Shown here piece by piece: positions 1 to 34,877 of a stretch of DNA of 64,000 nt; position 1 is the stretch's first letter; each line of letters starts with the position of its first letter. This stretch comes from a virus (taxonomy: Duplodnaviria; Caudoviricetes). A program made the position numbers and the translations under genes. The notes beneath the pieces were generated by a model, which saw nothing but the letters and a program-made list of their open reading frames with translations, did not search any database and was not told the origin of the DNA. Where the stretch lies: positions 17,332 to 81,331 of IMG/VR virus record IMGVR_UViG_3300037461_000547. One strand, given 5' to 3'.

Positions 1-1
1 C

Positions 2-18
2 CATCTTACTCTCCTTCC
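2..18 (-). promoter_or_regulatory. RBS and start codon of a minus-strand gene running off the left edge
   Basis: Minus strand reads GGAAGGAGAGTAAGATG: AAGGAG then ATG at 4..2. Confidence 0.5.
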
Positions 19-22
19 ACAA

Positions 23-69
23 CCCACACCCTGATTCATAGAGTCAGTGTTACTGGGTCAGGGTGTGGG
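23..69. other. Strong hairpin in divergent intergenic region
   Basis: CCCACACCCTGA (23-34) is the perfect inverted repeat of TCAGGGTGTGGG (58-69). Confidence 0.7.
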
Positions 70-171
70 CATACCTTTAGAGAGTCCCTTTTTAGGATTT
101 GGGCGGTGGTTAAACCACAAGATCATCCCCATCTCGTAGAAAGCGCTTCTGTCGCGTGAGAAGCTGTATTA

Positions 172-606
172 CAGGTAGCACAGTCACGTCGTACTGGTGG
201 AAAGAGAGGTCGCTATGTTCGCATTAGATTTAGGGCCAGTACCGAGTGAAGAAGAGTGTCAACAGTTCGGTACAGTTTCCTATGACGCTCTCCGAGCATG
301 GAAAGAGTGTCAAGCATTCCAGCACCAGTTAGAACGCCAATTCAAAAAAGAATTAACAGAAGCTAATCCCAAAGCACCAGCACCAAAGATCATCAGAATC
401 GCTGTCCACAAAGAACCTGAAGGTTACTATGAAGTAGTTGTCAAAGTAGAAGACGGCGCAAGTGATGATGTAATTGCTCTGGCGTACACCATAGAAGAAA
501 ATCTACCACAACACTGGGACAAAGAAGCTAAAGATGAACTAAAAAGAATAGAATGATTTATTAAATCAGTACGACACTACCTGTGCTGCAGGTAGCACAG
601 TCACGT
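172..606 (+). repeat. 18-bp direct repeat flanking the first ORF
   Basis: CAGGTAGCACAGTCACGT identical at 172-189 and 589-606. Confidence 0.95.
215..556 (+). CDS. Hypothetical phage protein (acidic)
   Basis: Open frame 197-556; GAGG RBS favours ATG 215; resembles a recurrent phage hypothetical (LGPVPSEEECQQ...YYEVVV...HWD). Confidence 0.8.
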   Translation: MFALDLGPVPSEEECQQFGTVSYDALRAWKECQAFQHQLERQFKKELTEANPKAPAPKIIRIAVHKEPEGYYEVVVKVEDGASDDVIALAYTIEENLPQHWDKEAKDELKRIE

Positions 607-628
607 TAAGCGTCCTGTCGCCATTGGA

Positions 629-675
629 AGGCCTGTGGGGAAACTCACAATACCCCAACGGGGTAGAAAGGCCTA
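629..675 (+). other. Local three-way-junction leader upstream of the ParB-like gene
   Basis: AGGCC/GGCCT closing stem, TGTGGG-GAAA-CTCACA GNRA hairpin, TACCCC-AAC-GGGGTA hairpin, ending 3 nt before ATG 679. Confidence 0.55.
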
Positions 676-678
676 ACA

Positions 679-1953
679 ATGGCTAAAGCTAAATCGATCT
701 TTGAGTCAATGACGCAAGAAGATATGCAGAAGCTGATCGATGCGTCAGAAGTGACGCCTGCGGGTCAGATTATGTATCAAGACGGTTTCATTGACCCTGA
801 AGCCGAGGGCAAAGACCTTAAGTACGACTGGGACGCACAACCCAGAGAAACGACAGATGGAAGAGGGTTGGTCGATTCTATTCTTCGTTTAGGATTGATT
901 GAACCTCCAACACTGGCGTTGTACGGTGGTGATGACGTCCCAGAAGTAGTTCGTGGACATCGTAGAATCGACGCCACGAAAATCAGTAAGACAGAACACC
1001 CAGAAGATTACAAGCGTATTTTCCCCAACGGTGTTCCTGTCAAGATTGCCGTCGGTAAAGTGGTCAATGGTAATCGGGTGGATTTAACGCACAAAGACAT
1101 CTTTCTTCTGCGTGCGGACCACGATTTGGACTCTCTCAAAGAATCCTTACATTCAAAGATTGAGTGCTACAAAATGGTATCCCCGCTGTTTCGCGCTGGG
1201 TTCACTTATGCAGAAGTAATTGAGAATACGTGGCGCACTGTGTCGCGTATCTTAAGCACAAAGTATAATGAACTCAAAGATGAAATCGCAAAGACTCCTG
1301 CACGTAGCGTTCAACTTCAAATACTGGAAAGAAGCCAACATGGGAATTACCAGTTTTTGAAGGCTTTGAGTGATTCACCGAATCTCCTTGTAGAAGCATG
1401 GATGAACGGTGAACGGAACAAAGGTCCTAAATTCACACAAGCACAGATCAAAGGTCTGGCTTCAAAGTTCAAAAGTCTTCAGGCGGATGCGGGCAAAACT
1501 GCCGGTGCAGACGCATTAACTCAAGAAAATCCTGGCGATGCTTGGATTAAAGAGTTCAATGATGTCTTCACAGAAATCAGTGTGCCTAAAGAAGCCAAAG
1601 AAGCCGGTCCAAAAATGGCAAAACGTGGCAAGATTGAAGAAATGCTCATTGCTGTTTCTTCAAAGACTGCACGCTTGGCTTTCCAATCTGTTCTCGGTGT
1701 GGAGAACGCAGAGAAACTGTTGAAAAACACCTATGACAAAGATGTCGCTGTGTTTGAATCAATCCGTGAATCTGTCCCCAGCTTCGTAGAATTCGTGCTG
1801 ATCAATGCGCCCCTAATGGAGCAAGACATTACCAAATCCGATGTTAAGAAATTGACAGAAGTGCTTGGTCTTGAATCTGCTCACAGTAAAGCGGCCCAAG
1901 CTGCTGCGAAGGGTGGCCGTTCAGCGAAACAAGAAACCGCAAAAGCAAAGTAA
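679..1953 (+). CDS. ParB/Srx-like N-terminal domain protein
   Basis: SILRLGLIEPPTL...VVRGHRRIDA matches ParB-N boxes including the GxxRxxA motif. Confidence 0.7.
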   Translation: MAKAKSIFESMTQEDMQKLIDASEVTPAGQIMYQDGFIDPEAEGKDLKYDWDAQPRETTDGRGLVDSILRLGLIEPPTLALYGGDDVPEVVRGHRRIDATKISKTEHPEDYKRIFPNGVPVKIAVGKVVNGNRVDLTHKDIFLLRADHDLDSLKESLHSKIECYKMVSPLFRAGFTYAEVIENTWRTVSRILSTKYNELKDEIAKTPARSVQLQILERSQHGNYQFLKALSDSPNLLVEAWMNGERNKGPKFTQAQIKGLASKFKSLQADAGKTAGADALTQENPGDAWIKEFNDVFTEISVPKEAKEAGPKMAKRGKIEEMLIAVSSKTARLAFQSVLGVENAEKLLKNTYDKDVAVFESIRESVPSFVEFVLINAPLMEQDITKSDVKKLTEVLGLESAHSKAAQAAAKGGRSAKQETAKAK

Positions 1954-2021
1954 ACGTGCTTAAATAGAACACCCTGCGGGTCTTCCAATGGCGGCAGACG
2001 CAGACTATATGGGAGGCCAAA

Positions 2022-2213
2022 ATGCGTAAAGTCATAGAAACTTTGCTTCGGATTCTTCGAATCCATAAGAAGCAATATATCACCTATCAAAGACGTGCCG
2101 TTGACCCGTTGGAGTCAATGGTGAAAATGTATAAAAGGCAACCTTCAATTCGAGTACTGTTTCTATTAAGAAACACAACCAATGGATTACCAAAGTTGAA
2201 ACTGAAACGGTAA
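2022..2213 (+). CDS. Small basic hypothetical protein
   Basis: GGGAGG RBS 5 nt before ATG; 63 aa, K/R-rich. Confidence 0.7.
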   Translation: MRKVIETLLRILRIHKKQYITYQRRAVDPLESMVKMYKRQPSIRVLFLLRNTTNGLPKLKLKR

Positions 2214-2261
2214 AGAAGTAGACATAGTCTGCCGCTTAATGGCGACAGGAATCATCTATTA

Positions 2262-2373
2262 GGGGCGCAATTGTGTGGCGATGAGGATACATCGTTAAAA
2301 CACACAATGGGTTCAGAAAATACCCTTCCCAACGGATAAAAATTCGAGAACACGAATCCACGTGTTCCGCCCC
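2262..2373 (+). ncRNA. Putative multi-way-junction RNA domain
   Basis: GGGGCG/CGCCCC closing stem; ATTGTGTG/CACACAAT carrying GCGATG/CATCGT; GGGT/ACCC; GAACACG/CGTGTTC hairpins; no ORF. Confidence 0.6.
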
Positions 2374-2381
2374 GTCTATAC

Positions 2382-2598
2382 GCCCCCATAGCTCAATTGG
2401 TAGAGCGTCGAGTGTAGAAGCACAGGGAGATAATGCCGTGCCAATCGTAAGATTTGACGAATCTCTACGAAAAGGTTGTGGTCAATATGGGTTTGCTGCC
2501 CAGACCATCACGGAGAAATAATGCCCTGCTACCTTGAAGGCGTGCCCTGTAGGTTCGTCACTACGCTGGGCCTGTGGGTTCGAGTCCCACTGGGGGTA
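2382..2598 (+). ncRNA. Large tRNA-like RNA (217 nt) with expanded anticodon domain and long variable arm
   Basis: Acceptor GCCCCCA/TGGGGGT plus A73; D arm GCTC-AATTGGTA-GAGC; TCGAG/CTTGA stem enclosing 120 nt; T arm GTGGG-TTCGAGT-CCCAC; no encoded CCA. Confidence 0.85.
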
Positions 2599-2631
2599 TT
2601 TGGTGACAGGACGACAGGAAGGACGGTCACT

Positions 2632-2901
2632 ATGGCAGAAACAGCACCTAAATCTTCGAAAGAAGTGATGCGTGAAATCGCGGAGAAAAATACTATCCCA
2701 GAAGGATATTCTCTCGAACAAGAAATACACATATCGCTCGACGATACTTTGATTTCAGAGGTGGCGTGCCAACTCCTACGGTATAGAGTTCGCGCCATTC
2801 GTTTAGATGGCGAGTGGGAGTTACCAGAATGGGTGTATAAATCCGCAGAGGATATTGTTGATTCATACATCCATGAACACTTTATCCATCGTAAAAGATA
2901 A
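2632..2901 (+). CDS. Hypothetical protein (89 aa)
   Basis: AGGAAGGA RBS before ATG 2632; the upstream extension of the track ORF overlaps the tRNA-like RNA. Confidence 0.75.
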   Translation: MAETAPKSSKEVMREIAEKNTIPEGYSLEQEIHISLDDTLISEVACQLLRYRVRAIRLDGEWELPEWVYKSAEDIVDSYIHEHFIHRKR

Positions 2902-2984
2902 CCCTTAAGATGTCGTCAATCCTGTCACCCAATGACGGTAGGACGATAGAAAGTGAGGTGCATATGAATAGAGATAATCACTAA

Positions 2985-3518
2985 ATGTACGAAACCCTTG
3001 TATATCAAACCGTAGAAGGGGTGATTACAAGAATCGCGATTGTCAATTACAGTAGTGAAGTGTTCGGGTCATTGTTTGTGAATCCTGAATTTAAGAATAA
3101 GGATTGGCGCTCTCGCAAAATAGAGATTGTCGCAAATGATGCGTATTACTCTCCTTGTTGGATGTACCTTGATTTGGTTGCGGCACTTTCCAGACAATAT
3201 GGAAATGCCGTCCCATGGGGCACAGCCGATGTACTACATCGCGTTGTCCCACACGTGAGTAAAGCATACATAGAAAATTACACACATCTTATGTTGCTTG
3301 ACTACCGGACAGAGATTGATCGCGTCCATCATCTGGACTTGGTAGCGAACAAACAAATCAAGACCGTCTATGAACGCGACATAACATGCCGGAACATTCA
3401 CTTGTCAAAGATAATTACGATTCAACCAATCACAGACTACGAGAATGAACACGTCTATGAAATCGCACAACAGACGTTAGAGAAAAACATGTACCCTGTA
3501 AAAGTCGTCCTGCAATAA
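2985..3518 (+). CDS. Hypothetical protein
   Basis: 177-aa ORF followed by a terminator; no recognisable motif. Confidence 0.8.
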   Translation: MYETLVYQTVEGVITRIAIVNYSSEVFGSLFVNPEFKNKDWRSRKIEIVANDAYYSPCWMYLDLVAALSRQYGNAVPWGTADVLHRVVPHVSKAYIENYTHLMLLDYRTEIDRVHHLDLVANKQIKTVYERDITCRNIHLSKIITIQPITDYENEHVYEIAQQTLEKNMYPVKVVLQ

Positions 3519-3520
3519 CC

Positions 3521-3559
3521 AAACGCCCGTATCTCGTTATGAGGTACGGGCGTTTTTTT
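3521..3559 (+). terminator. Intrinsic terminator of the + strand operon
   Basis: AAACGCCCGTA...TACGGGCGTTT stem followed by T7. Confidence 0.9.
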
Positions 3560-3604
3560 ATTGATTCAACGCATCGTTAGTGTGATTTTCAAAAATCAGA
3601 ATAT

Positions 3605-3620
3605 GATTGCACAATCATAA
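3605..3620. promoter_or_regulatory. Palindromic site GATTG-N2-CAATC(R)TAA, copy 1 of 3
   Basis: GATTGCACAATCATAA; also at 3924-3942 and 34970-34988. Confidence 0.55.
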
Positions 3621-3649
3621 CCCGATTACTGTTATTGTATTCTTTTTAT

Positions 3650-3674
3650 AAAAAAAAAAAAAAAAAAAAAAAAA
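3650..3674. repeat. Poly(A) tract (25 nt)
   Basis: Direct count of the A run. Confidence 0.9.
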
Positions 3675-3729
3675 TAATATAAAGAATAGGAACTACCCCT
3701 AATCGGTCATTTTCAGTAATGTGAAAATT

Positions 3730-3793
3730 ATCACAACACACCCACCGCCCGCTGCCCATCACAACACGCCCATCACAACACACCCACCGCCCG
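3730..3793. repeat. A/C-rich direct repeats
   Basis: ATCACAACACACCCACCGCCCG at 3730-3751 and 3772-3793; ATCACAACAC three times. Confidence 0.9.
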
Positions 3794-3865
3794 TAGAACG
3801 GTTAAGCAACGGTTGCTTTGCCCTTCAGAGCTTGAAACACCACACCACCCACCAAAACTACCAAT

Positions 3866-3902
3866 AAAAAAAGGTCGCTTCCTATCTCAAGGAGAGCGAC
3901 CT
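3866..3902 (-). terminator. Intrinsic terminator of the long - strand block
   Basis: AGGTCGCT/AGCGACCT stem followed by T7 on the minus strand, downstream of dut. Confidence 0.85.
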
Positions 3903-3954
3903 ACAACCACGATGCTACAATCAGATTGCACAATCATAATCGCATCTGGCACAA

Positions 3955-4383
3955 TCACATCTGAGAAACAATCCCACCACTCGCACCCCGACACGTTGCT
4001 ACGGGATGTGCGCAATCCACTTTCTCCAATACTGGGGTATGGACCGGTACTATTACGATTTGTGCAATCGGTTCACCTTTAGCAATATAAATCGCTTGGT
4101 CCATAATATTGAATATTTTCACCAGAATCTCACCTTGATAGTCCGCGTCAATCACGCCTGCACCGATTAAGAAGTTTGATTTACTTTTCGGCCAGACGAA
4201 GGCCACTGTACCTTTTTCCCAAGCACACTTCACACCTGTCCGCACAATCTGGTAATTATGCGGATACACAATCGTATCATGTAAAGCACAGACGTCGAAT
4301 CCGGCGTCCGTAGGATGCTTACGTTTAGGGTCAGTTGCGAACTCTTCCACTTGGTACTTACAAACTTTCTTCCTTTTCCACAT
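3955..4383 (-). CDS. dut: dUTPase (trimeric type)
   Basis: DAGFD, PKSKS, GAGVIDADYQGEI and RGASG motifs; start refined to ATG 4383. Confidence 0.95.
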   Translation of the reverse strand: MWKRKKVCKYQVEEFATDPKRKHPTDAGFDVCALHDTIVYPHNYQIVRTGVKCAWEKGTVAFVWPKSKSNFLIGAGVIDADYQGEILVKIFNIMDQAIYIAKGEPIAQIVIVPVHTPVLEKVDCAHPVATCRGASGGIVSQM

Positions 4384-4387
4384 ACCT

Positions 4388-4687
4388 TTACCTTTCCACC
4401 GCCCAACATCGGACGTCGAAACGTTGTCCTTTTCGGATTCGCTCAATCTTAAACACACGTTTAATAATTGAGTAACAAAGAGCTATCGTGTCTTCACCGT
4501 CTGCTACGAGAATAAATACTTCAGATTTTTTGACAACTTTATAACGACCCTTTGGATTCATTGTAATCTCGGCACGGAATTTACAATGGCCTCTCGGAAG
4601 ACCAAACATTTCAACGCGCCAATAGCTTGTGATAAATTGTCGCCTGTAAAAAATAGTGTAATTAATTTTTGTGAATGTCCGTATCAT
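4388..4687 (-). CDS. Hypothetical protein
   Basis: 99-aa ORF tightly packed between neighbours. Confidence 0.65.
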   Translation of the reverse strand: MIRTFTKINYTIFYRRQFITSYWRVEMFGLPRGHCKFRAEITMNPKGRYKVVKKSEVFILVADGEDTIALCYSIIKRVFKIERIRKGQRFDVRCWAVER

Positions 4688-4971
4688 TGTTCTTTCCTTT
4701 CAACACCTGCTATTTCTTCGAGAAATAGCACTTGTTTTTTCAAGTGCGCAATCTCATCCCGTAGTTTGTCTTCGACAGGGGCGGGTGTTAATAACCTCCA
4801 TGATTTCCCCAATCGTATACTCGTCTGAATCAAACATAAGCATAAAATTACAGTCATTGTTTGTGCATTCAACATTGTTCGTAGAGAAATATGGCTTCTG
4901 ATTAACAGGCCCCATTGATGTTGCATTTTTAACTAATTTTAATTCACTTCCGCAAATGGACATGGCTTCAT
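4684..4971 (-). pseudogene. Lar-like (restriction alleviation) zinc-finger gene with two compensating frameshifts
   Basis: MKPCPF + CGSELK...INTRP + VEDKLRDEIAHLK is restored by adding one T at 4954-4956 and removing one C at 4778-4781. Confidence 0.65.
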
Positions 4972-4972
4972 T

Positions 4973-5188
4973 TTAGAACCCTTTTATTTCTACCATTTCG
5001 ATGCCTTCAATCTTTTCGGATTGAAATACGGTGGATACTTCATTAGCATCACAGTGGGAGATAACACCGAATATTTCGATTGTCCTGCTATCTGACTTAA
5101 AATCAGTAATTGCCTTTTGAGCGACTTCCTCATTACAAATATACTGATATGTAGAAGTCGTAAAAACAACAAGTTTCACTCGTTTCAT
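4973..5188 (-). CDS. Hypothetical protein
   Basis: 71 aa with GAAAGGAGACTGAAAAATG leader. Confidence 0.8.
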   Translation of the reverse strand: MKRVKLVVFTTSTYQYICNEEVAQKAITDFKSDSRTIEIFGVISHCDANEVSTVFQSEKIEGIEMVEIKGF

Positions 5189-5212
5189 TTTTCAGTCTCC
5201 TTTCAAAAAGGT

Positions 5213-5329
5213 GCGGCGGGCAGTTGGTCTGCAACTCTTTCGTTTTCGTCCGGTTCTTACTGCCGGATTCCGTTATCGTTTCGCCAACGCCTACGGACAG
5301 GGTGAGTCTGGCCACCACGCCACCGCCGC
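5213..5329 (-). ncRNA. Putative ~120-nt structured RNA, copy 1
   Basis: Begins GCGGCGGTGGC and ends TGCCCGCCGC; internal hairpins; intergenic. Confidence 0.5.
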
Positions 5330-5373
5330 ATTATTCAGTTTTCAATTCCAGAACAAACTTAAACAAGGTTCAC

Positions 5374-5529
5374 TCAACACATCTCCTTTGGCTTGTACCC
5401 TTCTTTCAGGCGGTCAATCTCGGCGTCTTTGCAATCGCACAGCATAATAATTTTATGTTCATCGCATAGTTTATGAATCTCAACCCCTACCTGCTTTTTA
5501 CATTTAGCGCATTCAACAATTATCCTCAT
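5374..5529 (-). CDS. Small Cys-rich protein with KDAEI motif (51 aa, below track cutoff)
   Basis: MRIIVECAKCKKQ...CDCKDAEIDRLKEGYKPKEMC; ATGA overlap with the upstream gene. Confidence 0.7.
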   Translation of the reverse strand: MRIIVECAKCKKQVGVEIHKLCDEHKIIMLCDCKDAEIDRLKEGYKPKEMC

Positions 5530-5804
5530 TTTTCACCGCCTTTCAGGGCTTGTTCGATTAAACTTACTATGACATCTCCATCGTGTTTTAACATATCAAA
5601 TACATATTTCTGCGAAATCCCAAACAGCAATTTTTTCAGCCGCTCAATCTCGGCGTCTTTGGCAGCCAGTTCTGTCAATAACCGCTTAAACTCAAGTTCG
5701 TCGGCTTTGTCTTGGAGTGGATGTCTTTTGCCCATCGGCGCGTTCATCCATTCGTCGTCCTCATCGGTTGTTTCAAATTTCGATTCATGCCAATCTTTAC
5801 TCAT
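5526..5804 (-). CDS. Hypothetical protein with AAKDAEIERLK motif
   Basis: Strong RBS leader; coiled-coil-like motif shared with neighbours. Confidence 0.8.
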   Translation of the reverse strand: MSKDWHESKFETTDEDDEWMNAPMGKRHPLQDKADELEFKRLLTELAAKDAEIERLKKLLFGISQKYVFDMLKHDGDVIVSLIEQALKGGEK

Positions 5805-5807
5805 TTT

Positions 5808-6134
5808 TCAGTCTCCTTTCAAAACTTGCTCTATAAGCCCAAGATGAGAGCTTATCGACCACGCAGGGTCATCGATTCGAGTATGCAATAACCTCAAGAC
5901 ATCTTTCATCTGGTCAATCACTGAATTTAAGTCGGCTATCTCGATACAGTGGTCTGCAATCTGATGCTGCCATTCCAAATTCTCGGTTTTCAATGTTGCA
6001 ATCTCGGCGTCTTTGGCGGCACAGTTTGGACATTGGATATTCGGAATCAGCACCCCTTCTATTCTCTTGCAGGGACAGTTATATTCGTGATTTCCTGCCG
6101 TGTCCATCTGGCAATAACAACACTGGGTAATCAT
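5808..6134 (-). CDS. Hypothetical Cys-rich protein with AAKDAEIATLK motif
   Basis: Strong RBS leader; CxxC motifs. Confidence 0.8.
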   Translation of the reverse strand: MITQCCYCQMDTAGNHEYNCPCKRIEGVLIPNIQCPNCAAKDAEIATLKTENLEWQHQIADHCIEIADLNSVIDQMKDVLRLLHTRIDDPAWSISSHLGLIEQVLKGD

Positions 6135-28737: not shown

Positions 28738-29077
28738 CTTGGGACATTTCCGTCACGTTACGGTAATCTGCCCCGAAACAAAAGAATAATTCTACAGGAG
28801 TTATCTTATCTTCGTACGAAATACATTCAAAATAAATTCCGTACTTGGGCGGATCACTGTATTGTTCGATAGTTTCAAATAGTGTAGAGTACCCATAATA
28901 CAGGAAAGCATCCTCATGAAAAAGAAAATCACATTTTGTAACTAACACATGGGATAATAAATCTGTTACAAGATGTGGGTAATTTAATACTGTTTTTTTA
29001 TCTATCTGAAATTTTCCGAGCCGACGTTCCTCAATTATTTTACAGGGATTGGCTTGGGATTGTATAGTCTTTTCCAT
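28730..29077 (-). CDS. Hypothetical protein
   Basis: 115 aa. Confidence 0.7.
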   Translation of the reverse strand: MEKTIQSQANPCKIIEERRLGKFQIDKKTVLNYPHLVTDLLSHVLVTKCDFLFHEDAFLYYGYSTLFETIEQYSDPPKYGIYFECISYEDKITPVELFFCFGADYRNVTEMSQDD

Positions 29078-29873
29078 TTTTCATTGCCTCATTTTTAATG
29101 TCTTGAAAAATATCTAAATCACTAATTTCACCTGCACACCATGAAACACATCTGGCACCAAAACTATTCCCGAGATGTTCCAAGATGTGGTCAATCAAAG
29201 CAAACATTTCTTGTCGTTTACGCAACCGTTTTGATTGTGCCGGTGGCATTTTTCGCGGGATATGTTTGCCAATACCACTATGTTTAATTTTGTTGTCTTT
29301 GATTATTTTGACATGCTCATAGAGTTGTTCGTCAGTCGCACCATTATTTTTTAATGTGTACAAATCACGTATTTGTGTTTGAGATAAAAGACCGGCTGCT
29401 GCTTCCTTTTGAACTTCCACAGGTAATTTAAGTAGCATTACACGGACTTGTACCCATCCTCTTGAAGCACTTGGAAGTTCATCTGCAATTTGGTATTCGT
29501 TTAATCCAAGTTTGAAAAGTGGGAGGATGGATTTTGCTTCTTCAAGTATTGTGAGGTTATGTCTTGAAAGATTTTCTGTTAGATTTAAAATTCTGGCTGC
29601 TTTTTCATCAAGATCAGCTCTAACAATACAATCAATGGTTTCCGCTTTATTTACGCGATGTGCAAAAAGCCGTCTAAAGCCAGCCACAACTTTGTACTTG
29701 TAATCTTCGATAGGCTCTTTTATCGTAGTTACTACGATAGGTTGAATCAGACCGTCTTTAGCAATACTCTTTGCAAGGTCAACAACTTCAACGGGATTTA
29801 TAGAATCCCTACAGTTAAATTCTTCGTCTACATAAATTTCATTCAGTGGGATTTTTTGAATCTGTTCTGACAT
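29040..29873 (-). CDS. ParB-like protein
   Basis: LAKSIAKDGLIQPIVV...VVAGFRRLFA...ENLSRHNL plus HTH. Confidence 0.88.
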   Translation of the reverse strand: MSEQIQKIPLNEIYVDEEFNCRDSINPVEVVDLAKSIAKDGLIQPIVVTTIKEPIEDYKYKVVAGFRRLFAHRVNKAETIDCIVRADLDEKAARILNLTENLSRHNLTILEEAKSILPLFKLGLNEYQIADELPSASRGWVQVRVMLLKLPVEVQKEAAAGLLSQTQIRDLYTLKNNGATDEQLYEHVKIIKDNKIKHSGIGKHIPRKMPPAQSKRLRKRQEMFALIDHILEHLGNSFGARCVSWCAGEISDLDIFQDIKNEAMKNGKDYTIPSQSL

Positions 29874-30528
29874 TTTTGATTTCCTTAAAGCAATAGGTTG
29901 CATATTTTATTTGGTATAAACAATCACTCAATGCGTCGTGTTTATTTTCTTGCGGGTGTTTTTCTTTTAATTTTTTATAGTCGCCACCCCACAACCAAGT
30001 TAAGGTTCTGAGATCACACATGTCGTGGTAGTTAAAAGGTGTACCTTGTCCGAGTATACGGTATGCGTTTGTAATAATAGGAATATCAAACGTTGAATGT
30101 GACCACACATGTTTCGCGTTAAACGAAAAGACTCTGAACGCATTTAAGGCCTCCGACAATGTTTTAGCATCTTTAATCCATGTTCTCGCGGATTCAGGTT
30201 GCTCGAACCACCACTTTATTGTGGAACCATCAATAATTAATCCATGATTCAAACAATCTTGAATCTGTATATTGACACTGAACTTACCACCTATGTCACC
30301 GTCCATATTAAAATAAGCCGCGCCGATTTGTGTAATCACAGATTGTGGTCCTCGACCAAGCGTTTCAAGATCAAGCATTAAATGTGGTGTTGGATTTATA
30401 ATTTTGGGTGTTTCACCTATACATTCTGGATCACCATGTTCCTGTATATAAGCATCAGTATAGGTTGCACCGCAAACACCGCACTCCCACTGTCGGTTTG
30501 CGCGATTTTGATATAGTGAACATTTCAT
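29839..30528 (-). CDS. DEDDh 3'-5' exo(ribo)nuclease (Rv2179c-like) with N-terminal Zn ribbon
   Basis: LMLDLETLG...FDIPII...HDALSD. Confidence 0.85.
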   Translation of the reverse strand: MKCSLYQNRANRQWECGVCGATYTDAYIQEHGDPECIGETPKIINPTPHLMLDLETLGRGPQSVITQIGAAYFNMDGDIGGKFSVNIQIQDCLNHGLIIDGSTIKWWFEQPESARTWIKDAKTLSEALNAFRVFSFNAKHVWSHSTFDIPIITNAYRILGQGTPFNYHDMCDLRTLTWLWGGDYKKLKEKHPQENKHDALSDCLYQIKYATYCFKEIKNVRTDSKNPTE

Positions 30529-33917: not shown

Positions 33918-34877
33918 TTACTTTGTCAAGTTTGCTTCAATCTCAACAGCTTTCTTTGCAGCATCTGCAGCTTTCTGTTTTTCACGTTCAGCTTTCCGAC
34001 GTTGCTTGGCTTCTTCTCTTGAACGTTTTCGCTGTTCATCTAAAATCTGTGCAGCTTCAATCGACTTCTGATCAAGATGCAGTACCCACTGTAGCGTCAG
34101 CATCGCGGCATCCACAGGATTCTTAACCCCAAACTCTTTAATAAGAGCTGGAAGAATCTGCGGGGTCGTCAATTCAGATTTGAGGACAGAAACTTTCTGG
34201 AGGTGTGCAATCGGAACAAACTCAGCAGCTTCAACTTTCTTACCCTGCCGACGGGCTTCCCGAATCTCTTTTGCGCGTTGCTGAATGAGGGGTACAAACT
34301 CATTGGGCTTCATCGTTTGTGCCCTATCAACGAAGGCAGCTTGTTCATCCGGCGGGAGTTTAGCAAGGGCATACGCGTTGGAAAGATTGATTTTTTCCTC
34401 ATCGACAAGTGCGCCGATATTCTTGTCAAGGCGAAGTAAGCCAAGACGCTCGCCAACCCAAGTAGGACTCTTTGACAATTTTGTAGCCAGCTCGGAAATT
34501 GTCATTGTCGCGTTGCAACCCAAAATCTTCTGCAACTGTTTGCTGTACTCGACGGGCTTAGTTTCAATGCGGTGAACATTTGCTAAGACCTGTGCCTCAA
34601 GGACTTGTGCGTCCGAGAGTTTCATAATGTGAACTGGGATTTCGGGAATCCCTGCGTCACAGCACGCCGAAAAACGCTGGAGACCATCAACCAACTCAAA
34701 GAAATCTTTGCCGTCAACACTCTTGGGGCGGACAACGATCGGGTTCAATAATCCGTTCTGTTTGATTGACGCCATCAAATTTTGATAATCTTCAGCTTCC
34801 TTGTTTACGCCACGCAAAGCAACTTCATTCGGGACGATTTCGGTAATCGCAATTGTTTTAACTTCTGTCTTTTGCAT
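33918..34877 (-). CDS. ParB-like protein, first gene of the - block
   Basis: LMASIKQNGLLNPIVV...LVDGLQRFSA...ANVHR plus HTH ISELATKLSKSPTWV. Confidence 0.88.
   Translation of the reverse strand: MQKTEVKTIAITEIVPNEVALRGVNKEAEDYQNLMASIKQNGLLNPIVVRPKSVDGKDFFELVDGLQRFSACCDAGIPEIPVHIMKLSDAQVLEAQVLANVHRIETKPVEYSKQLQKILGCNATMTISELATKLSKSPTWVGERLGLLRLDKNIGALVDEEKINLSNAYALAKLPPDEQAAFVDRAQTMKPNEFVPLIQQRAKEIREARRQGKKVEAAEFVPIAHLQKVSVLKSELTTPQILPALIKEFGVKNPVDAAMLTLQWVLHLDQKSIEAAQILDEQRKRSREEAKQRRKAEREKQKAADAAKKAVEIEANLTK

Follow-up and report, generated by a model that had tools for sequence, protein, structure and literature searches.

The 64,000-nt window analysed here (bases 17332-81331 of the virus contig IMGVR_UViG_3300037461_000547) contains, near its left end, a gene for a remote ParB-like protein that lies in a small island of plus-strand genes. 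Positions below are those of the window, and negative numbers lie upstream of it on the contig. Comparison with related phage loci shows that the predicted plus-strand RNA of this island carries conserved, covarying long-range helices that join the two flanks of a gene (referred to as brackets), as well as a conserved local helix that covers the start site of the ParB-like gene and competes with the long-range one. These features would fit a polycistronic phage operon of ~4 kb, in which the flanks of each cistron are paired in a long helix and the start of the ParB-like gene is freed when its 3' arm has been made, a reading for and against which we find the evidence evenly balanced. From this geometry we infer an effect on translation and, if it occurs, cleavage of the helices.

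The two pairing partners of the ParB-like 5' arm

The elements around the ParB-like gene are as follows.

615-640 (+): 5' arm of the bracket, forming 26 bp with 1972-1997; it includes an anti-AUG segment (GCCAUUG, 620-626), an anti-Shine-Dalgarno segment (AGGCCU, 629-634) and part of a core motif copy (613-625)
666-683 (+): translation start region, with the Shine-Dalgarno sequence GAAAGG at 666-671 and the AUG at 679-681
627-674 (+): local three-way junction of the closed state, whose stem 629-634/669-674 covers the Shine-Dalgarno sequence at 666-671
679-1953 (+): ParB-like open reading frame (ORF) of 424 amino acids with a GHRR motif, remotely ParB/Noc/KorB-like by profile, AlphaFold model and Foldseek
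1972-1997 (+): 3' arm of the bracket, which resembles the start region and contains CAAUGGC; duplex energy -49.8 kcal/mol

Read as plus-strand RNA, the 26 positions of 615-640/1972-1997 comprise 21 Watson-Crick and 5 G·U pairs with no other mismatch, and the 3' arm begins 18 nt past the stop codon of the cistron. The duplex between the two flanks of the gene is stronger than those of shuffled sequences (z = -5.7), and in a flank-to-flank helix scan of 100 ORFs of the genome, scores above 11 were obtained for island genes only (25 for gene A and 23.5 for the ParB-like gene), over a background of 5-11.

Homologs of the ParB-like protein, at 50-59% and at 19-31% identity, led to 12 further loci, the longer of which share synteny; these relatives are metagenomic contigs and represent just five or six independent sequence classes. 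Pattern scans of viral and genome contigs returned no additional relatives, and a metagenome scan added only one fragment. An inverted repeat of 20-33 nt encloses the homologous gene in every locus with both flanks present, namely in nine relatives and additionally in L024 (30 nt, 87%) and L025 (23 nt), while L011 is truncated short of its 3' flank. The loci of the close group share the outer portion of the arm (CTCTGTCGCCATTG) and differ in the inner portion, which covaries between the two arms, as AGTGACCTA/TAGGTCACT in L006 and L010, TGTTACCTACTGA/TCGGTAGGTACCA in L005 and GAAGGCCTGTGGGG/CCCTGCGGGTCTTC in the window; a compensatory change from A-U to G-C in the same helix distinguishes L009 from L010. 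The arms of distant loci are unrelated in sequence (for example, AACCAATGTAATTAATGGTATCCTTG in L016 and TAGTGCCGGTTTCGGTAGTTTGTTAGC in L020). Cognate flank duplexes have z scores of -4.5 to -9.5, and non-cognate duplexes across subgroups are much weaker.

The mismatches in these helices are biased in a manner that depends on the strand. The bracket helix of the ParB-like gene has 18 G·U against 2 A·C mismatches (binomial p 4e-4), and all brackets together have 28 against 6 (p 2e-4). This asymmetry points to selection on the plus-strand transcript; neither a DNA motif nor a recombination site nor the terminal repeat of a mobile element would be expected to show it. An invertible DNA segment of the inverton or shufflon type was rejected on the same bias, which favours RNA, and because the arms differ between genes and phages instead of sharing one recombinase-specific inverted repeat, no search for a recombinase having been made; the terminal inverted repeats of a mobile element were rejected since the gene position is syntenic and fixed and the mismatches are G·U-biased. 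Archaeal bulge-helix-bulge sites were discarded because the bracket helices have no opposed 3-nt bulges, as were mimics of CRISPR repeats, on account of mismatches in the stems and an unsuitable spacing.

The same 5' arm has a second partner close by. When the 5' untranslated region (UTR) of the ParB-like gene was folded alone, GCCAUUG (620-626) paired with CAAUGGC (677-683, which includes the AUG) and AGGCCU (629-634) paired with 669-674, so that the anti-AUG and anti-Shine-Dalgarno stems close a three-way junction beside the start codon. This closed architecture is predicted in 7/7 close loci, in which the inner stem varies yet matches (GAGUUCC/GGAACUU in L011, GUG-ACCU/AGGA-CAC in L010), and L016 and L017 reach it with quite different sequences, for a total of nine loci. 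The duplexes between arm and start region exceed shuffles in 7/10 loci, and by duplex energies in the seven close loci, the cognate pairing of anti-Shine-Dalgarno and Shine-Dalgarno sequences beats all but 0.2% of the permuted assignments (p 0.002). From a MAFFT alignment of the seven 5' UTRs, RNAalifold recovered only the 7-bp anti-AUG stem, which is invariant; the inner stem was missed because indels misalign it. The 5' arm thus has two conserved partners that exclude each other, the start region and the 3' arm, and the second of these is a mimic of the first.

As an observation on the 3' arm itself, the AUG within its CAAUGGC opens a 13-codon frame (1988-2029, +), the stop of which overlaps the start of the next gene, 2022-2213 (AUGCGUAA). 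No Shine-Dalgarno sequence lies upstream of this frame, which may be a by-product of the mimicry of the start region.

Predicted release of the start region

In the design that we propose for the ParB-like cistron, an upstream arm (615-640), the start region (666-683) and a downstream arm that imitates the start region (1972-1997) would together couple translation to the completeness of the message. During transcription of the ORF, the upstream arm would fold onto the start region and keep it closed. Once the polymerase has moved beyond ~1997, the 26-bp helix would capture the upstream arm and expose the ribosome binding site, and by the same logic, degradation of the 3' end would shut off translation again. 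A duplex of at least 20 bp is also a plausible site for RNase III-type processing or for stabilisation, which could separate the cistrons in the manner of the flanking stems of ribosomal RNA (rRNA) operons.

We calculated partition-function folds for window transcripts that start at 602 and have varied end points. With ends from 720 to 1965, the arm was on the start region (~13 pairs), and the mean unpaired probability of positions -15 to +3 was 0.29; with ends from 2000 to 2260, the arm was fully on the 3' arm (25-27 pairs), and this probability was 0.49. In full-length partition-function folds, the arm likewise has 13-18 pairs with the start region before the flip and 22-31 pairs with the 3' arm after it, and the predicted opening in L005, L009, L010, L016 and L017 rises from 0.17-0.33 to 0.49-0.63.

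An earlier note on this DNA had placed the exchange further downstream. In that model, once transcription has passed 2250, the motif copy at 2238-2250 would invade the outer half of the 26-bp helix (state 1) and give a three-way junction of 13+15+10 bp (state 2), acting as a timer for translation or processing of the ParB-like mRNA. The claimed pairings exist: 613-625 (TCCTGTCGCCATT) and 2238-2250 are perfect reverse complements, 2224-2232/2000-2008 forms nine Watson-Crick pairs, 2227-2236/1990-1999 forms nine Watson-Crick pairs and one G·U pair, both states consist entirely of canonical pairs, and the local junction beside the start codon is predicted at 627-674. The recurring motif GGYGACAGGA also occurs exactly at 613, 2241, 2602 and 2920, as the note had said, and nowhere else in the 81-kb genome. 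With one mismatch allowed it has 11 matches against 4.35 expected, a number reached in 0/100 shuffles, and the perfect 13-mer pairing taken alone is only marginal, with an estimate of ~0.1 such pairs by chance per 4 kb. Mutually exclusive partners of 613-640 are real, one of them touches the start codon, and homologs conserve more than one partner rather than one only; the pair that is supported, however, is the start region versus 1972-1997, and not 1987-1997 versus 2238-2250.

The timing and the consequence of the proposed exchange fared less well. The arm flips between transcript ends 1965 and 2000 in the partition-function folds, and not at 2250. On 598-2262, the bracket fold, which is state 1, has an energy of -571.6 kcal/mol, state 2 has -565.8 and the closed fold has -562.3; state 2 thus lies 5.8 kcal/mol above the minimum, a gap that is within model error, as the error of the multiloop terms is of similar size, and it is not populated in the 602-2260 ensemble. 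The only difference between the two states is the 3' copy to which the outer half of the 5' arm is paired. Since both keep the anti-start segments (620-634) paired, and the start region is equally exposed in both, their exchange should not change translation.

The relatives bear on this model in both directions. Close relatives keep two to four distal core copies, those in L006 extend over 5' nucleotides (CGCAC) not engaged in the proximal helix and would provide a toehold, and state 2 would break the helix of at least 20 bp and could thereby remove an RNase III site. On the other hand, the whole-operon fold pairs 2233-2250 elsewhere (with 604-612 and with the motif copy at 147-155), and the proximal partner alone reaches the variable, covarying part of the arm. 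Furthermore, most distal copies in the relatives carry GGCTACAG, which makes a C·U mismatch with the ParB-like 5' arm and matches other arms (CTGTAGCC), so that these copies resemble arms of outer or neighbouring brackets, all belonging to a single repeat family. An exchange past 2250 therefore appears improbable to us.

Brackets across the operon and their possible roles

The earlier note had described the feature at the ParB-like gene, but it is not peculiar to that gene: when the 4-kb transcript is folded as a whole, the minimum-energy structure encloses every cistron of the operon in a helix. The island genes and the elements predicted around them, all on the plus strand, are the following (the ParB-like ORF, 679-1953, is described above).

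-392/-380 to -36 (+): first island ORF
-423..-398/-29..-4 (+): bracket helix of the first gene, 26 bp, whole-operon fold
147-155 (+): further core copy, 5'-type and degenerate (TTCTGTCGC); 9 bp with 2242-2250 in the whole-operon fold, weak alone
215-556 (+): island ORF
163-183/581-601 (+): bracket helix of gene 215-556, with a second helix, 188-198/565-575; whole-operon fold
604-612/2233-2241 (+): outer 9-bp helix over the ParB-like gene and the next gene; closes a three-way junction in the minimum-energy fold
2022-2213 (+): small island ORF
2000-2008/2224-2232 (+): bracket helix of this small gene, 9 bp, whole-operon fold
2224-2250 (+): composite 3' element, in which 2224-2232 pairs with 2000-2008, 2233-2241 pairs with 604-612, and 2238-2250 is a distal core copy
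2632-2901 (+): island ORF
2598-2611/2920-2933 (+): bracket helix of gene 2632-2901, 14 bp, made of core copies in opposite orientations
2985-3518 (+): island ORF
2938-2947/3504-3513 (+): bracket helix, whole-operon fold
3521-3555 (+): strong intrinsic terminator at the operon end, from a terminator scan

The distal core copies at 2238-2250, 2598-2611 and 2920-2933 are most simply explained as arms of outer or neighbouring brackets made from one repeated core. The stretch 581-600 also represents one of the copies of the GGTAGCACAGTCACGT motif, whose complement is the 5' arm that lies upstream of the first operon gene, outside the window. We considered GGTAGCACAGTCACGT as a promoter and rejected it, since the one copy in minus orientation and the first of the plus copies together make a 24-bp helix that exactly encloses the first gene.

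Most small neighbouring ORFs of the relatives are also bracketed, often by unique perfect arms (26/26 in L017, 22/22 in L020, 20/20 in L005 and 23-28 nt in L024). In one relative (L021:2647-3934), ten copies of the 16-mer GAGGGCAATGGCTGAT, which alternate strictly in orientation, flank each small ORF; they also form 16-bp hairpins in the spacers with 13-nt loops, and as a result of this alternation, brackets and local spacer hairpins are indistinguishable in this locus. A local hairpin was also noticed near the start of the window (23-69, +; CCCACACCCTGA/TCAGGGTGTGGG, 23-nt loop), and its beginning, CCACA(A/G)CCCAC, is shared with bracket 5' arms in L005, L006, L009 and L015.

The presence of brackets throughout the operon raises the alternative that they serve only for RNA processing, stability or insulation, with the duplex cut by host RNase III or protecting the ends, and with the complementarity between arm and start region being non-regulatory or acting only through its removal by cleavage. 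This would account for brackets that form without masking of the start region at the small genes, and for L019, L020 and L021, which are bracketed yet have no predicted opening of the ribosome binding site. Helices of 20-33 bp suit RNase III as substrates, and the bracket of the ParB-like gene, with 26 bp in the window and 20-33 in the relatives, has the flank duplex of at least 20 bp that is characteristic of rRNA-type RNase III stems; rRNA operons and the T7 early region are precedents for such processing stems. What this alternative does not readily cover is the pairing between arm and start region, which recurs in three unrelated sequence classes and covaries, and is hard to explain without selection; moreover, several brackets are just 11-16 bp. 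We consider a role restricted to processing rather unlikely.

The repeated core also has to be viewed in the light of the protein encoded next to it. The earlier note had called ORF 679-1953 ParB-like, a label that is acceptable for a remote relationship as judged from profile and structure prediction: a profile built from 23 homologs matches Spo0J/ParB/Noc (1vz0, E 1.5e-6), and the AlphaFold model, with a predicted local distance difference test (pLDDT) score of 84, matches ParB/Noc/KorB structures with a Foldseek probability of 1.0. At the level of Pfam the label fails, as ParB_N finds no match in this ORF, which also has no PHROG match. Canonical Pfam ParB_N ORFs, distinct from this one, lie elsewhere in the window at 29040-29903 (-) and 33918-34877 (-), with E values of 1e-14 and 3e-16, respectively.

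Given a ParB/KorB-like product and near-palindromes in the relatives, the core could also be a protein binding site. In its strict form, this alternative states that (A/T)TGG(C/T)GACAGGA, in relatives CTGTNGCC-NAAT-GGCNACAG, is a parS- or operator-like DNA site for the adjacent ParB/KorB-like protein or for a repressor, and that its two orientations mimic RNA pairing. Proteins with the ParB/Noc/KorB-like fold bind clustered palindromes near their own genes, close relatives carry 20-nt near-palindromes in intergenic spacers downstream of the gene, and all copies in one genome undergo concerted evolution (AGGACG in the window, AGAGTGCA in the relatives). The near-palindromes, seen in L005, L006 and L009, always have a central mismatch, and in place of the palindromes of ~13-16 bp, each able to bind a dimer, that characterise parS or KorB-operator systems, the window holds only half-sites, kilobases apart and in mixed orientation, with no local palindrome. 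A DNA site would also leave unexplained the complementarity that reaches 10-15 nt past the core into unique sequence, the retention of pairing through full turnover of the arm sequences, the bias of G·U over A·C, and the non-repeated perfect arms around other genes in L017, L020 and L005. As the sole explanation a DNA site thus seems to us to have little likelihood, and DNA-site and RNA roles could coexist.

Several points weigh against the release of the start region that we favour. Within the window, the open fold is preferred over the closed one by just 9.3 kcal/mol on 598-2262, and when the transcript is extended to 2620 the ensemble is mixed. Among the relatives the effect on the start region is not universal, since L020 and L021 are unchanged, L019 is reversed and L006 barely changes, and the pairing between arm and start region is absent in L019 and L021. 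The bracketed small genes have no general masking of the start region, and hence the licensing of translation cannot be the general purpose of the brackets. If the start region stayed closed while 1.3 kb were being transcribed, the RNA would go untranslated and be open to Rho. With regard to cleavage, the phage encodes no RNase III gene, and the 11-16 bp of some neighbouring brackets are below the length of classical RNase III substrates. Finally, a repeated, partly palindromic core beside a ParB/KorB-like gene could be a DNA binding site.

With these points in view, the release of the ParB-like start by its 3' arm can be extended, tentatively and with more doubt than belief, to the operon as a whole. 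This phage lineage may possess a bacterial counterpart of the closed-loop mRNA, in which the ends of every cistron are held by a helix, at least one gene is licensed by a post-stop sequence that displaces an anti-start arm, and the repeated core arms together with a co-transcribed tRNA-shaped RNA make up a folding and processing relay. If so, translation would be restricted to complete, undegraded cistrons. If the predicted logic is true, expression would depend on the completeness of the mRNA, giving phages a new means to insulate, time or quality-control their cistrons, and the compact, portable design could be used in synthetic operons.

The tRNA-shaped RNA (2382-2601, +) has canonical acceptor, D and T arms, and a structured insert of ~120-150 nt replaces the anticodon loop; it was not called by ARAGORN or Rfam. 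ARAGORN found no tRNA or transfer-messenger RNA in the window or in nine relatives. A comparable element lies in the spacer after the ParB-like gene of L005 (6353-6551, +; T arm GGAGGUUCGAAUCCUCU, fold z -3.8) and has its own bracket, 6332-6352/6552-6572. The 170-nt spacer ahead of the tRNA-shaped RNA in the window (2262-2373, +) contains GC-rich stems and no ORF, and includes a terminator-like hairpin on the minus strand (2368-2347).

The contig, of 81,331 bp, is linear and comes from a metagenomic siphovirus, with a completeness estimate of 89%; one DNA run, of a wetland metagenome, may represent its source sample. It carries genes for a tape-measure protein, a family A DNA polymerase, a UvrD-like helicase and a class II ribonucleotide reductase, and nearly all of its phage genes are on the minus strand. 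The plus-strand island, at ~-430 to 3560, is located between GpA-type terminase genes and replication genes. A scan from -887 to 4200 found no terminator-like site on the plus strand before 3520, the sole site being the strong one at 3521-3555, so that the simplest reading of the island is a single transcription unit of ~4 kb. Pfam and PHROGs gave no match for five island proteins or for 10 homologs, a BLAST search of 1-4000 against phage and plasmid collections gave none, and an Rfam scan of 1-6000 (E up to 1) returned only a chance microRNA match, on the terminator. In the divergent spacer that separates the island from the genes on the terminase side (L001:1-260, window ~-885 to -670), three copies of ~21 nt like (T/A)CCTGTATTTACAAGGATTTA were observed, which could be promoters, operators or cos-binding sites.

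Relation to known systems

The closest structural parallel is provided by the RNase III stems of the 16S and 23S rRNA in rRNA operons, in which sequences 1-3 kb apart on one transcript form a helix of at least 20 bp that encloses a functional unit, and consecutive units of a polycistronic RNA each have their own stem. The phage differs in that the enclosed units are protein-coding cistrons, some of the helices are only 11-16 bp, any cleavage is conjectural, and the ParB-like arm has a second, local partner in its own start region. The early mRNA of T7 is likewise a polycistronic phage message divided by double-stranded elements in the spacers, at which RNase III cleaves and some cleavages influence translation; the T7 sites are local hairpins between genes, whereas the helices described here span a whole cistron.

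Opening of a start region by a competing RNA has its precedent in the anti-antisense activation of rpoS, where an arm of the 5' UTR occludes the start region and the small RNAs DsrA, RprA and ArcZ free it by pairing with that arm. The upstream arm of the ParB-like gene is similarly predicted to pair with the Shine-Dalgarno and AUG region (620-626/677-683 and 629-634/669-674), but its competitor acts in cis from beyond the stop codon of the same cistron, and neither a small RNA nor Hfq is implied.

In Staphylococcus aureus, the 3' UTR of the icaR mRNA pairs directly with the Shine-Dalgarno sequence in the 5' UTR, which represses translation and creates a double-stranded RNase III target (PMC3868564). 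The phage element resembles icaR in that a 3' flank pairs with the 5' UTR of its own message and is predicted to affect ribosome access, and by computation it has the hallmarks of a 5'-3' UTR interaction of this type, namely a covarying helix, the G·U bias and occupancy in the predicted ensemble. In contrast to icaR, the nearest documented example of 5'-3' UTR pairing in a bacterial mRNA, the partner of the phage 3' arm is 615-640, which lies upstream of the Shine-Dalgarno sequence, and the predicted effect is an opening of the ribosome binding site; the phage feature is in addition operon-wide and conserved in its lineage.

Mycobacteriophage stoperators, the conserved inverted repeats of phiC31 and the parS/KorB operators are DNA sites for which long-range complementarity is not needed. 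What they have in common with the phage core is a short motif whose copies, placed in the spacers between the genes of a block, evolve in concert, whereas the pairs described here extend into unique sequence, covary and are G·U-biased.

In the literature we found no account of cistron-bracketing helices in phage operons, which, as the coverage was incomplete, argues only weakly for novelty. Only a few individual bacterial mRNAs are known to have 5' and 3' ends that pair. In the phages analysed here, such end pairing appears as an organising principle of an entire operon and has persisted in at least twelve related phages while the arm sequences turned over completely, and within that operon a single gene is predicted to have two mutually exclusive helices, each of which covaries.

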